Positions 15,133 to 43,043 of a stretch of DNA of 64,000 nucleotides are shown piece after piece. The translations under genes and the position numbers were made by a program. The notes beneath the pieces are model-generated. The model was given only the letters and a program-made list of their open reading frames with translations, was not told the DNA's origin and ran no database searches. The stretch's first letter is position 1. The number at the start of each line of letters is the position of its first letter. The DNA comes from Octopus vulgaris (lineage: Eukaryota): positions 124,930,001-124,994,000 of the forward strand of contig OX597814.1 of NCBI GenBank assembly GCA_951406725.2, read 5' to 3'.

Positions 15133-16418
15133 TTGGGTTGTCCGGAAAGTTCGTGCCGATTTATAGTAGCTTACCTTTCGACTTATTTTAGAACATGGTT
15201 GAGTCCATAAAATAGGATTTTACTACATCTCCATTTAGAGCACAGCTTAAGCTATCTTTTCGTGGAAGAAGGTTTATGTTCCTATTAGCTGTGTTAATTC
15301 TGTAACCCCTTAAAATAGAAGATAAGAAAGTTCATTTTCGGCACTTGATGCTTTTCTTTTTCCGTAAAGGGAAAAATGCCTCACAAGCATCCAAAGAAAT
15401 ATGCGCAGTTTACGGTGATGTTTCTTTATCCGAAAGAACCGTACGGGAGTGGTTCGCAAGGGCCCAGAGCTGGAGATTGTAGCCTTATTGGTAAAGAGCG
15501 ATAAGGCAGACCATCCTCTTCAGATGATGACCAAATCAAGTCATTAATTGAGAAAAAACCCACATTGCACAACCCGAGAATTGGCAGAAAACCTCAACCT
15601 ATCAAAATCCGTCGCTCACGAGCACCTGGTAATGCATGGGTACACAAATCGTTACGATGTTTGGGTACCACATGGGTTGAGTGAGAAGAACTTTTTGGAT
15701 TGCATTTCCATCTGTGATTCGCTTTATAAACGGAATGAAAACGCGCCTTTTTTAAAGCAAATTGTGACAGGTGATGAGAAATGGATTATCTACCGAAATG
15801 TTCAGAGTAAGCGATCCTGGAGTAAGCTACATGAGCCACCCTTAGCCACCCCAAAAGCGGATCTTCACCCTAAAAAAAGTCTTGCTTTGTGTCTGGTGGG
15901 ATTGGAAAGGAATTCTGTACTATGAGCTTCTCTGAAGTAACCAGACAATTAATTCTGAGAAATACTGCACACAACTGGACGAGTTAAAAGCAGCAATTCA
16001 AGAGAAACGTCCAGAATTGGCAAACAGGAAGGGTGTTGTTTTCCAACATGACAATGCAAGACCGCACGTTTCTTTGGGAACCAGACAAAATTTGCTGCAG
16101 CTCGGCTGGGATGTGTTACACCACCCTCTATATTCACCAGATATTGCTCCTTCGGATTTCCACTTATTCAGATCTCTGCAGAATAGTCTTGATGGTAAAA
16201 ATTTCAATTCCTTGGATGACGTAAAAAGATATATTGACGAATTCTTTGCCATGAAACCACCTCAATTCTGGGAAGAGGGTACTTTCAAGTTAAAGGAAAG
16301 ATGGAGACGCATTGTGCAACAAAATGGTTCATATTTGGCTGATTAAAAATGTAATAGCAAGTATTTATTGACCTTTTTCTTTCCTTTAAAATTGGCACGA
16401 ACTTTCCGGACAACCCAA
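15133..16418 (+). mobile_element. Full-length mariner transposon (1286 bp), inactivated
   Basis: ~30-bp TIRs TTGGGTTGTCCGGAAAGTTCGTGCCGATTT, TA TSD on both sides, transposase motifs inside. Confidence 0.97.
15315..16346 (+). pseudogene. Mariner D,D34D transposase pseudogene
   Basis: WVPHGL, IVTGDEKWI, QHDNARPH, YSPDIAPSDFHLF. The start codon is ATA here but ATG in the derivative at 20695. Frameshifts and stops. Confidence 0.95.
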
Positions 16419-20384: not shown

Positions 20385-20512
20385 TATTACCTATTTTGCT
20401 ATCTTCGATCGCATTGTGTACATAAACGTATTCATATAACTTTCAGTGCTGTCTCTAATTTCTATAGAAAATCTTTGGAGATAACTTTAAAAAACAATCC
20501 TACACTATAATA

Positions 20513-21078
20513 TTGGGTTGTCCGGAAAGTTCGTGCCGATTTATAGTAGCTTACTATTCAACTTATTTTAGAATATGGTTGAGTCCATAAAATAGGATTT
20601 TACTACACCTCCATTTAGAGCACAGCTTAAGCTATCTTTTCGTGGACGAAGGTTTATGTTCCTATTACCTATATTAATTCTGTAACCCTTTGAAATGGAA
20701 GATAAGAAAGTTCATTTTCGGCACTTGATGCTTTGGGAACCAGATAAAAATTGCTGCAGCTCGGCTGGGATGTGTTACCCCACCCTCCATATTCACCAGA
20801 TATTGCTCCTTCAGATTTCCATTTATTCAGGTCTCTGCAGAATAGTCTTATTGGTAAAAATTTCAATTCCTTGGATGACGTAGAAAGATACCTTGATGAA
20901 TTCTTTGCCATGAAACCACCTCAATTCTGAGAAGAGGGTATTTTCAAGTTAAACAAAAGATGGAGACGCATTGTGCGACAAAATGGTTCATATTTGGTTG
21001 ATTAAAAATGTAATGGCAAGTATTTATTGACCTTTTTCTTTCCTTTAAAAATCGGCACGAACTTTCCGAACAACCCAA
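20513..21078 (+). mobile_element. Internally deleted mariner derivative (566 bp)
   Basis: Same TIRs and TA TSDs as 15133-16418. Junction CACTTGATGCTTT|GGGAACCAGA. Confidence 0.96.
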
Positions 21079-21735
21079 TACTTTTCACAATAGATCATAC
21101 CACACTATAACACATTATAGTACACCACACTACCAAACACCGTACTATGTTAGAACTCACCTTACCACACCTCACCATAGCACTACACCACACTGCATCA
21201 CACCCCATACCCCACACTCCATTACACTGTATCCTTACCACATGACCCGTACTATACTGCACAATAGTTTATTAAAAGAAACACCTCAAGATGGTTGCAA
21301 TATTTTATCAATGTCTTTTAACAACAACGACAACAGTTATAGCTGCTACGTGAGTCATAAAAATAGCCACAACCATCACTATCCAACGAACACAACAACC
21401 ACAAATACAAAAGCTATAATGACAATAATAACATCACAATCGTAAACAACCACAACTACAACAAAAACACTGATGACAACAAGATCAACAACAACAACAA
21501 CCACAACACCAATAACAACAACAGCAATACAATGACAAGACAAATGAAGGAGAAAGAGAGAAGAATGAAGAATGCTATGAAGTCTGTCTCGGCATCCATC
21601 GCCCTTGTGGCATTAAAGTAAAGATCGTCATCATCATCATCATTATCATCATCATCATCGTCATCGTCATCGTCGTCGTCGTCGTCGTCGTCATCATCAT
21701 CATCATCACCACCATCACCATCATTATTATTATTA

Positions 21736-31212: not shown

Positions 31213-31760
31213 ATAATGGAATCCTATATTGATAAGCATTATAGACAACACTTCTCCTCTTCAGAGATATAAAATGTGAAATTTGTATAATTTATCGAAT
31301 GGTAGCTTTTTTAAAAAATATGAATTAATATGGGGAAATGGTGTTTGTTTGAAATATAAGTTAAAAATTAAAAATTACTGCTTCTGATTTTGGTAAGTAC
31401 ACTTTAGTATGAGAGTTTTTAAATCCATATATGCTTCCTTGGTAAGTAATAATCCATAATAGTTATGTGTAAAATCCATTATATTGTCCGCTATTCCAAA
31501 TATAGTCCATAGACTTAGAGAATATAGAATAATGGAATCCTGTATTGATAAGCATTTATAGACAACTCTTCTGCTCCTCAGAAATATCAAATGTGAAAGT
31601 TGTATAATTTAACGAATGGTAGTTTTTTAAAATTATGAAGTAATATAGGGAAATGGTGTTTGTTTGAAATATAAATTAAAAAATACTGCTTTTGATTTTG
31701 GTAAGTATGAGAATCATGAAATTCAGATATGCCTCCTGTGTAAGTCTTCTGTAGTAATAC
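31213..31760. repeat. Diverged direct tandem duplication (~317-bp period)
   Basis: ATAATGGAATCCT(A/G)TATTGATAAGCATT... starts at ~31213 and ~31530 and stays collinear for >220 bp. Confidence 0.85.
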
Positions 31761-31796
31761 ATAATAATTATGTATAGATACAGGACAATATAATGG

Positions 31797-31847
<51 letters not shown>

Positions 31848-31911
31848 CACTGTACGTTTATAACAAATGCTTTCTCGAGACGAATGCCGCAGTTTACAAG
31901 ACTTTCAACTG

Positions 31912-31970
<59 letters not shown>

Positions 31971-31996
31971 TTTATTTTAAGCAGCAGAAAATTCAA

Positions 31997-32045
31997 CAAA
32001 ATCTGTTACTCTGAGTTTCTCGTTGCCGTTCATCAGACAGTTTTT
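31997..32045 (-). ncRNA. Minimal type-I hammerhead ribozyme (mirror copy)
   Basis: Exact reverse complement of the plus-strand motif. Confidence 0.85.
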
Positions 32046-32050
32046 GCTAG

Positions 32051-32100
32051 AAAAAACTGTCTGATGAACGGCAACGAGAAACTCAGAGTAACAGATTTTG
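32051..32100 (+). ncRNA. Minimal type-I hammerhead ribozyme
   Basis: AAAAAACTGT-CTGATGA-A-CG GCAA CG-A-GAAA-CTC A GAG-TA|ACAGATTTT. Intact core, stem I CUGU/ACAG, GNRA-capped stem II, predicted cut after 32090. Confidence 0.85.
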
Positions 32101-32196
32101 TTGAATTTTCTGCTGCTTAAAATAAAGCATATTACTCTACCACTGGTATTTGAGTACTCTTTTTTCCACCTTGTTTCACATTTATGTGTTTACTCC

Positions 32197-32266
<70 letters not shown>

Positions 32267-33202
32267 ATACGTATATAGATTGCTAATTTGAACACAATTT
32301 GGGGATATTTTTCTTCAGAGATATTGTTAAAGCACCTTATCAGCGTTACTTCATTTCTCCTCGTTTTCACTCTCTCACTGTATACACACATGTAAATACA
32401 AACACACGCACTCAAACACATGCCTGCACACAATACACACACACACTTATACACGCGCGCGCGCACACACATATTGTTTCGCCTATAGCTGATCTCTCAT
32501 AGTTTTGCCAACTCAAGAGGGAATGTTTGCTAAGCCTGGCAAATGTTCATTGCTTTTACCAGTTGGATTTCAATATCGTAGCTACCTTCGCCTGCTGCTT
32601 CCAGATTTTAATCACCTCTAGAAGAAGCTTTACTTGCTGATGATCGAAGTCTTTTGACTCACTATATTACAATTGCGAAACCCTATCGAAGCTGATAAAT
32701 TATACAGAAATGCTTTATGACTACTTTTGACTTTTCGCTGCCCCTGTCTTTTTTAGGGATGGTTTTATTATTGGAAATATTGCTGCTGATCTTAATGATT
32801 CATTCGCTTCCTTATTTGAACTAAATTTTTACATGGTTTTCTGTAAAATATTGTCGGTGAATTTTATGACTCATCTGCAAAACATTGAATCATCGTTTGA
32901 CTTTTTGAAGTTGGAGGTAATTTATAAAATAGAATTTTTGCATGCCATAGATTTCCCCCATCAAATTATCGTGGTCCGACAACATTTTACCAAGATATAT
33001 CCGTATCGTTCCTCTGTTACATGACAGTTGTTGGTCCCAAGTGAATTAGACGAATTTATATGGCGAGAGTTATTTGGAAAGAACAGATTCGAAGTATCTG
33101 GCATTTTATACCATATCATATTCCGTAGCCTCCTAAATAAGTTTTGCTATAAAATCCTTTGAATGCTGATAAATAACGAAATGTTTTCTTTATTGTTTCT
33201 TT

Positions 33203-37264: not shown

Positions 37265-37863
37265 TAAGGGTTCAAAAATCAAAGAGTGTTCACAATAAGC
37301 TCCCCAACTGCTGCGTAACTTTTGTGAAAGACTGGGGATGTAACCTCCCTGTGTAATCTCATCGTTGTCCAAAAATGTAGAGTGGAGTATATATAGTAAA
37401 AATTGATCATAAATCAGAGAAACGATGTTTATTCCATTAGCTGATAGGTGCTTTGTAATCTGTGTTAGTCAATAAAACGAATGTACATCATCCGTCATTC
37501 ACGTATAAATAAATATACATATAAATGTATAGATACATCCATAAATATAATTGCACGGTAGTGTAACGAACAGATAATACTTCGGAATATTTCATGGCAA
37601 GGCAAACACCAAGCTCAGCTATAAATTGTAAATAGTTTCATTATATAGCTACATACCATATATGTAGCTGGCAGATTTCACTCTTTACAAATACTAGAAT
37701 TACGGAGAAGAATTAACGAAGCGATAACAGTCGACAGATACGAATTTAGAAAAAGAATACAGTAAAATAAAGTAAATAACTGTCTAAGGACGTGATGTTG
37801 CGCCTCTGATATCCTAAAGGTGGACAAGCAACAATAGCAGTGATAATGCCATAAGTACAAGAG

Positions 37864-38196
37864 CACAGACAAGAAAATATGTCGAATCGACTGGCGGCCT
37901 GTTCAAACATTGTCTGAGAAAACACAGGTCTTCTTTTAGAATACCAGAGAGGCACAACATCGTGTCCTTGACCAGCGTTTAAGAGAGGAGTGTACGCCAT
38001 ACACAATGAATTGGAAGCTCCTAGGGAAACCATGGCCATACTCAATGGGAGAAAATGTTGTAGACTTTGTTTTGCCGAAAGGGCAAACATTCTGAAAAAC
38101 TCACTCGACCCGGGGTCCTTTTTAAACTCCAAATGCGAGATGTTTTGTCAGTGCCCTCATCAAAGAAAATTCATGTTAGAAATATGGAATTCATAA
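37864..38196 (+). pseudogene. Penelope-like GIY-YIG endonuclease fragment
   Basis: RKYVESTGGLFKHCLRKHRSSFR (YIG-like) ... MNWKLLGK ... CRLCFAERANIL...FLNSKCEMFCQCPHQRKF, frameshifted. Confidence 0.8.
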
Positions 38197-39027: not shown

Positions 39028-39402
39028 ACATATATATTTCAAAAGTTAGACAGAGAAGGGAAAAATAGACGAAAACGGCGAAAATATAACGGACAGAAAA
39101 GGGAGACAAAACCATGATACAAGGCACATTCGCAGCTGATTTTTTCATCAGTTGGTTTCCAAGACGCCCTAGTGGTTTCACGCTATTCAAAACCAAGGCT
39201 ACTGTTATTAATGGCAGCTCCACAGCATAGAGCAACAGGAAAAGGTTGACGAATGTGTGCGAGAAGACAATAACATTGCGTGTACAATAAGAAATATTGA
39301 CAAGATATAACAGACAAGGAATGAAATAGATAGGTAGATGCATACATATACATTGTATATAACATATTATATATATATATAAACACAGTATATATTTTTT
39401 AT

Positions 39403-39488
39403 GAGCTACTGATAGTTTCATGCGATGAAAACAACTCAGACACCATTTTATAGCACGTCTGGTGCCTTCACGCAATCCTCAGATTGAG
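39403..39488 (-). ncRNA. Hammerhead-like motif with greatly extended stem II
   Basis: CTGAGGA-T-TGCG-TGAAGGCA-C-CAGAC...GTCTG-AGT-TGTTTTCA-T-CGCA-T-GAAA-CT ATC AG-TA. Core intact; stem I not evident. Confidence 0.55.
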
Positions 39489-42539: not shown

Positions 42540-43043
42540 AGGAAGACACTTCCCATCTGGAAGTGTAACAGCGATGCCCTTCCTGACATCCCTCCTTACT
42601 TTTTCATGTGCAACTCGAGATTTCTCAAAAGTGGCTGTCCCCTCGTGCACAATCCTTCCTCACCTGCTACGATCAATAGCTATGCCTTCCCATGTGTCAG
42701 GAGAGATGCAAGCATGCTGGACTCGAGAGTCATCTTCGTAGTCATAAAGCGAGACAGATGAGTGACAACCTGGCCACTGGTGGTGGTGTAACATACCATA
42801 CTAATCATATCTGTCGGGCATGTGGAAGAGAGTGTAATTCGGTAGGAGGACTTAAACGGCATGCAAAGGTACATGAAGCCCAGTTACAACTACAGCCGGC
42901 TATTACCGGTAAAGGTATTAGTTGCCAGTTCTGTACAAGACATTGTAGATCTTTAGCTGGGCTAAAAAGTCACATTCGATCACAGCACCAGTAAGAGTTA
43001 AGCTTCGTGCAATGGCCATACTCGAAAACGAGGGGGGGCCGTA

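Follow-up and report, generated by a model that had tools for sequence, protein, structure and literature searches.

The occurrence of two hammerhead ribozymes on opposite strands of an almost perfect palindrome raises the question of whether such a layout constitutes a genetic unit in its own right or the by-product of an insertion process. The palindrome lies in a 64,000-nucleotide stretch of the Octopus vulgaris genome (assembly GCA_951406725.2, contig OX597814.1, positions 124,930,001 to 124,994,000 of the forward strand), hereafter the window, in whose coordinates all positions are given. A preliminary description of the sequence had interpreted it as a young, non-autonomous unit derived from Penelope-like elements (PLEs), working as a self-silenced ribozyme and double-stranded RNA cassette. 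Our analyses identify it most likely as a palindromic 3' stump of an endonuclease-positive (EN+) PLE, likely of the Hydra type; it is a known kind of insertion from a new family.

The layout itself is as originally described. Exact 76-bp inverted arms (31970-32045 and 32052-32127) surround a 6-nt spacer (32046-32051), within which two further pairs form and one G.A mismatch is left. The right arm had been said to run about 70 bp further than the left, and the right side indeed extends to 32198/32199, through a 67-nt tail (32133-32199, + strand) present at one end only. The (TA)n reported on both sides occupies 31926-31969 and 32199-32257, both tracts likely being pieces of the target microsatellite; as regards a target-site duplication, both flanks of the palindrome consist of (TA)n. 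Two copies of a PLE 3' end, both truncated at 5', lie here head-to-head with their 3' ends outward. The direct copy (32052-32199, + strand) includes the tail and is matched both by an nhmmer profile and by the RNA model R1 described below. Its 5' end is adjoined by an inverted truncated copy without tail (31970-32052, - strand), whose 3' end faces outward into the left (TA)n at the mirror of 32127-32132 and which retains C, the base typical of the family, at the mirror position of 32051. The head-to-head junction (32046-32052) carries an imperfect CTAG microhomology and is the presumed joining point of two cDNAs. The first family 3' end (32128-32132, + strand) is likely one copy-start site, just before a hairpin (hairpin 1), and the end of the tail is likely the second. 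The palindrome 31970-32127 has neither a second copy nor a tandem copy in the 64-kb window. Just to its left, 31213-31745 holds a tandem duplication of about 316 bp (79-96% alike), the left part of which is repetitive in the sequencing runs.

An intact type I hammerhead core (CUGANGA, GAAA, UH and stem I) was found on each strand, in agreement with the preliminary description. The minimal ribozyme of the + strand spans 32057-32094, with C3 to A9 at 32061-32067, G12 at 32078, A15.1 at 32081, U16.1 at 32089 and A17 at 32090, a numbering that predicts cleavage after 32090, the same site as proposed before; its mirror copy on the - strand spans 32003-32040, with C3 at 32036, and is matched by model R1 with an E-value of 3e-5. 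Stem I pairs CUGU with ACAG and is extended by A-U pairs as stated, with an A.A mismatch in between, and comprises 12 pairs in the - strand copy, while the 9-nt stem III (ACUC-A-GAGU) is self-complementary. The GCAA-capped stem II needs refining: its helix has just two pairs (C-G and G-C), with an A68.A77 mismatch at its base, and the hammerhead is devoid of the conserved G10.1-C11.1 pair at that place. This mismatch need not represent decay, since an unpaired stem II base is the rule among Hydra-type cores, occurring in 26 of 40 distinct cores (21 with U.U, none with A.A). A strict descriptor demanding a palindromic stem III of at least 8 nt was matched in 0 of 300 dinucleotide shuffles of the window, and a relaxed hammerhead descriptor in 39 of 300. 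The Rfam hammerhead models gave no match at gathering score and none at E<=10, the best Rfam matches on the palindrome being microRNA hairpin models under their cut-offs. A frame of 18 codons starting from an ATG within the ribozyme core runs into a stop.

Hammerheads of this class have been described before. The minimal PLE hammerheads reported in 2014 (PMC4209133) share with those of the palindrome the full core, the palindromic stem III and a predicted dependence on dimers; in that report single minimal PLE motifs did not cleave and dimers cleaved weakly. Paired minimal hammerheads on opposite strands were also noted there, so that the palindromic layout is in print: the pairs are 100-700 bp apart, most motifs being single and stemming from truncated PLEs, whereas the two motifs of the palindrome are about 25 bp apart and have a stem II of two pairs over A.A in place of one closed by G10.1-C11.1. 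The non-LTR retrozymes of Li et al. (2026 preprint, 10.64898/2026.07.22.740005) are likewise non-coding and PLE-related and bear type I hammerheads; they are presented as head-to-tail tandem arrays, whereas the palindrome is a single head-to-head pair with no double hammerhead in cis. The consulted text of the O. vulgaris repeat paper does not mention hammerheads.

The proposal of a self-silenced cassette holds in part. In silico the long hairpin clearly prevails over the ribozyme fold (-138.8 kcal/mol for the whole palindrome versus -7.5 for the monomer hammerhead), it is predicted for transcripts of either strand (-138.8 and -137.9 kcal/mol), and the computed probability of the hammerhead pairs within the whole palindrome is 0.0; function, transcription and selection at the locus found no support. 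Two hammerhead copies are predicted to co-fold through stem III at -26.6 kcal/mol, versus -24.4 for two monomers. Each transcript contains a single ribozyme in sense orientation, of a kind presumed to require dimers, and even the right arm plus tail alone reaches the hammerhead fold with a computed probability of only 0.001-0.014, so that silence is expected without any selection. Read-through RNA is accordingly predicted to form a 76-bp hairpin with a single dimer-dependent ribozyme and not to cleave itself, and silencing is, as far as these folding models go, a consequence of the layout and not a demonstrated function. None of the sequencing runs that hold the region is recorded as RNA; the one guessed to be RNA (X11) contains the family sequence and leaves the unique flank 32259-32374 of the locus uncovered, which is uninformative either way.

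The PLE origin proposed at the outset was borne out, and could be narrowed to the Hydra type through models derived from PLE loci and through the hairpin downstream of the ribozyme. The loci were reached by way of a relic within the window, the decayed remains of a Hydra-type PLE ORF, frameshifted and comprising its C-terminal endonuclease end (37845-38190, + strand; tblastn E 2e-8). The relic has no Pfam match and a first homolog search with the fragment was empty; a search of the full library gave five matches, whose long relatives are RT proteins of about 700 residues, and a profile built from these relatives recovers the relic (iE 3.4e-6) and fetched 78 loci (L001-L078). These include near-identical families and are not independent, so that all counts based on them overstate independence. 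Section 11 of Craig et al. (2021; PMC8557442), where the Hydra clade is described as inserting in (TA)n and carrying hammerheads, gives RWK, DKT, CxCX5C and a lack of CCHH as protein marks of this clade; of the first three, we found ADKT in 63, CxCX5C in 72 and RWK in 53 of the 78 loci. A minimal hammerhead with a palindromic stem III occurs in 44 of the 78, and 51 of 52 matches lie on the ORF strand.

Several comparisons connect the palindrome with these loci. Model R1, built from 25 Hydra-type loci only and acting as a sequence model (only two pairs are present in its structure), matches 32053-32162 along positions 1-120 of 120, with 43.7 bits and an E-value of 6.4e-9, the best of eight matches at E<=1. 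An nhmmer profile from 22 loci recovers 32055-32161 (E 2.5e-6), and the arm is closest to loci L065, L063 and L058 (blastn E 1e-6 to 2e-3). The terminal-repeat RNA, i.e. the hammerhead and the downstream hairpin, resembles that of ORF-bearing Hydra-type loci in a comparison made with Hydra-type loci only, and insertion into (TA)n agrees with the clade. As published (PMC8557442, section 11 and files S1, S2 and S7), the Hydra clade shares with the palindrome the (TA)n target, the CTGT/ACAG stem I, the 9-nt palindromic stem III and the unpaired stem II base. The published Hydra set contains an octopus family with (TA)n preference and a ribozyme unlike that of the palindrome, the ribozyme of the palindrome family differs from that of Hydra-1_Obim, and the stem III and hairpin strings of our finding have no match in the supplement of that paper; an exact-pattern scan of metagenome contigs for the family also gave no match. 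The family's own ORF was not found in the 64-kb window, where just the relic of another PLE, with no visible similarity to the palindrome family, is present. Clade assignment rests for this reason on likeness at the RNA side, which makes the Hydra clade likely, not proven.

A second palindromic stump, from another Hydra-type family, occurs at 63073-63234 (+ strand; model R1 E 0.027), again with (TA)n on both sides. Its exact 46-bp arms (63073-63118 and 63121-63166) are cut inside the hammerhead, and hairpin 1 is found at 63173-63193, followed by a 68-nt tail. Since the same layout recurs with a broken ribozyme, it is better read as an insertion product than as a device. The second stump forms the centre of a 1.5-kb inverted duplication (62408-63890) with arms of about 660 bp, in which 360 of 365 aligned non-microsatellite bases are identical and which may be a fold-back element of greater age, target flank that was duplicated during insertion, or a misassembly. 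Faint, decayed hammerhead-like remnants of Hydra type were also seen at 39360-39447 (- strand; model E 0.3, nhmmer E 0.018) and 10544-10626 (+ strand; model E 0.24).

The ends of both stumps relate to a repeated hairpin. Hairpin 1 of the palindrome (TACTC...GAGTAC; 32133-32157, + strand) starts 56 nt past GAAA, within the range of 46-67 nt at which a RCTC...GAGYAC hairpin starts in 35 of 38 cases among the loci; its A-U pair replaces the usual G-C, present in 52 of 57 locus hairpins, none of which has A-U. The chance rate of such a hairpin in the window is 0.0125 per 100 nt. All 23 hammerheads with an ORF start downstream are followed by at least one hairpin, and 18 of the 23 by two, spaced by 43-79 nt (median 66.5), the duplicated GCTC...GAGCAC preceding the start codon. 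The tails of the two stumps in the window (32052-32199 and 63073-63234) measure 67 and 68 nt, and in both stumps one arm stops short of hairpin 1 and the other extends for 67-68 nt more, to the place expected for hairpin 2; hairpin 2 itself falls outside both stumps, just its expected distance fitting. A second ACTC at 32192 and 63217, 8-18 nt before the stump ends, could represent the start of hairpin 2, and both stumps would then overshoot by 8-18 nt, unlike the loci. Among 22 3' copies, ten are without a close partner and four reach the contig end, leaving eight that are informative: five end at most 4 nt from the start of hairpin 1 or 2, and three (L034, L040 and L045) do not end at a hairpin. 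Taken together, the repeated hairpins and the stump ends suggest priming on both nicked strands, one per hairpin. Published consensus sequences of Hydra elements, e.g. Hydra-1_Ajap, display a GCTC...GAGCAC hairpin; the words hairpin and stem-loop are absent from the text and supplement of PMC8557442, and we found no published description of a duplicated post-ribozyme hairpin in Hydra-type PLEs in the literature outside subscription papers and Repbase.

To place the palindrome among other copies of its family we turned to public sequencing runs, 20 of 24 of which hold part of 31500-32700; four of these (X1, X3, X7 and X11), from four studies and under three species labels, were analysed. In all four the element is covered far deeper than its flanks, with a summed contig depth of about 1e5-2e6 compared with 50-59 in the flank, a sum that we take solely as a sign of abundance, not as an estimate of copies. 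In all four runs (30, 40, 13 and 3 contigs) position 32132 is followed by loose (TA)n, which makes 32132 a second 3' end of the family, and the left arm stops at the mirror of this position. Loose ends behind 32052 in three runs indicate that family sequence continues past the centre, and consequently that the centre is a junction. Of 49 joints, the 15 best supported were examined, 14 of them in the element: these 14 are all at different places, have 0.8-2.2 times the depth of the flank, and just one is common to more than one run. The fold-back junction, whose constancy had been at issue from the outset, thus varies between copies (14 examined of 49 joints), and the differing junctions, their depth of 0.8-2.2 times the flank and the family sequence beyond the centre speak against a fixed, non-autonomous propagating unit. 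In a selection of 13 from at least 49 joints, ten junctions have one end at 32091-32107, just past the predicted cut, a hint of a tie between junction ends and cleavage site, given that the range was picked after seeing the data.

Variation among family copies bears on the ribozyme as well. The core change U4C (32062) accounts for 26-95% of the depth at its site in runs X1, X3, X7 and X11, so that the family core is not uniformly kept; this change reduces activity in vitro and still permits viroid infectivity (Perreault et al. 2011; PMC3088659). Common family variants affect N7, loop II, position 11.1 and sites outside the ribozyme besides U4; at position 11.1, A to U restores a pair (A-U) and A to G does not (A.G). 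At 32051, A>C reaches 25-51% of the depth in three DNA runs; a perfect-palindrome subfamily was considered for this variant and dropped, C being the family's own base. Other candidate patterns were rejected on similar scrutiny: a truncation profile, suggested by the drop in depth on approaching the centre, on account of edge effects; a shorter direct copy in 13 of 13 junctions, because a palindromic reference gives each joint an equivalent mirror reading; and the joint 31776-32432 (X1 and X3), as an empty allele, because its 22-letter side lies in repeats and 32280-32432 is as deep as the flank in both runs. Upstream of 32120, related subfamilies are seen to diverge in the sequencing runs. As to the youth ascribed to the element, the identity of the 76-bp arms is compatible with it.

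These results converge with what has been published on PLE insertions, in which an inverted, 5'-truncated copy frequently lies alongside and a tail is present on one side only (legend of Fig. 2 in PMC8557442; PMC3846280). The EN+ PLE insertion units in these sources share with the palindrome the inverted truncated copy placed head-to-head, the palindrome at the junction, the tail at one end, the hammerhead in the terminal repeat and the microsatellite target; the stump differs in measuring 230 bp without an ORF and in a tail of 67 nt versus the published 30-40 bp. We regard it as quite probable that the locus is a head-to-head palindrome of two 5'-truncated, hammerhead-bearing 3' ends of a PLE, likely of the Hydra clade, likely from one insertion event and likely a dead-end by-product. 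The two-hammerhead palindrome is, in short, an ordinary PLE insertion product.

Under the mechanism that we propose, the RT-endonuclease of the element would nick both strands of a (TA)n tract, and each nick would prime cDNA synthesis on the RNA of the element, at an A/U-rich stretch that immediately precedes one of two repeated RCUC...GAGYAC hairpins. With starts near 32132 for one cDNA and near 32199 for the other, a tail would be left on one side only; both cDNAs would halt at the hammerhead (in this case shortly beyond stem I) and would be joined via a few matching bases around CTAG. Biochemical precedent exists in the Poseidon PLE of Anolis (PAc; Frangieh et al. 2024, PMC11167929): the purified enzyme nicks and extends both target strands in vitro, two RT start sites delimit the tail, and insertion is independent of ribozyme cleavage. 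The two systems share these start sites bounding the tail, the nicking and extension of both strands and an AT-rich target. In PAc, a single AC-rich stem-loop within the ORF contains both starts and the start codon is overlapped by the ribozyme, whereas in the palindrome family, judging from its relatives, each start would precede one of two repeated hairpins that are themselves located upstream of where the ORF begins. A literature search for twin priming with Penelope found no paper whose title concerns the PLE mechanism.

Extended to the clade, this leads to a tentative model, which we hold somewhat less probable than its negation: reverse transcription of Hydra-clade PLEs would begin at two repeated RCUC...GAGYAC hairpins separated by about 65 nt, with an enzyme dimer priming both nicked (TA)n strands, one per hairpin, and both copies would be prone to end at the hammerhead or at the site of its cleavage, palindromes of 160-230 bp being snapshots of two-ended priming. 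If true, two-ended priming would account at once for the tail and the inverted terminal copy of PLEs, and would provide a minimal RNA by which insertions into (TA)n could be programmed. The value of the locus is mechanistic, the origin of PLE inverted terminal copies and one-sided tails being named as open in Craig et al. (2021; PMC8557442), and the repeated hairpin gives a sequence-level prediction of copy-start sites and of a tail of about 67 nt. Stumps of this kind are frequent in the genome (two clear and two faint in 64 kb) and are liable to pass for MITEs, for microRNA hairpins or for novel ribozyme devices.

The strongest alternative, which we consider unlikely, retains the PLE stump and derives its inverted half from an antisense template or the first cDNA, copied by self-priming or by fold-back. 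It has a precedent in Arkhipova et al. (2013; PMC3846280), where such palindromes are attributed to self-priming on an antisense template, and would account for two family-minority bases (32095 and 32119) that are present in both arms and point to a single source, as well as for the short CTAG palindrome at the centre. The outer end of the inverted arm suggests a priming site, as it falls where plain direct copies (L031 and L075) stop before hairpin 1 and pass into (TA)n. Moreover, the direct arm falls 7 nt short of the inverted arm on the 5' side, and copying from a direct cDNA would require trimming.

A non-autonomous palindromic mini-element, transcribed and retroposed whole by a PLE enzyme and possibly kept as a source of double-stranded RNA or as a self-silenced cassette, is improbable. 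The identical arms and the dominance of the 76-bp hairpin in the predicted fold agree with it, as do the family sequence in the run guessed to be RNA and two diverged pieces (record 17 of X3 and record 25 of X7, runs of two other species labels) that span the same centre register. Copies propagated whole are difficult to reconcile with 14 differing element junctions (of 49 joints) at about single-locus depth, one of them common to runs, and with family sequence running past the centre; both outer ends coincide with 3'-end sites of PLEs, another family has the same layout with its ribozyme cut in half, and no second copy of the palindrome exists in the 64 kb.

A fold-back artefact of amplification or assembly is very improbable indeed: palindromes between (TA)n tracts are difficult to assemble, the exact junction of the window is not among the best 32 of 15,853 pieces and the second stump lies inside the unexplained 1.5-kb inverted duplication, but a fold-back would have mirrored the tail and the right flank, neither of which is mirrored, the left end coincides with a family 3' end in four of four independent runs, and similar fold-back junctions occur in contigs of independent runs at about single-locus depth.

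The window contains further repeats and remains. A mariner-type transposase remnant (Pfam Transposase_1) occupies 15548-16346, with related short pieces at 20507-21081 and 57537-58086, and a 21-bp minisatellite with open frames on both strands lies at 2534-3012. Two abundant families of short interspersed repeats are represented, one at 7311-7756 and about ten related places, the other at 102-518 and related places. An exact 27-bp inverted repeat with a 10-nt spacer is located at 6573-6636, and 42680-42994 (+ strand) holds a short frame that has two motifs resembling C2H2 zinc fingers and may be a LINE end.
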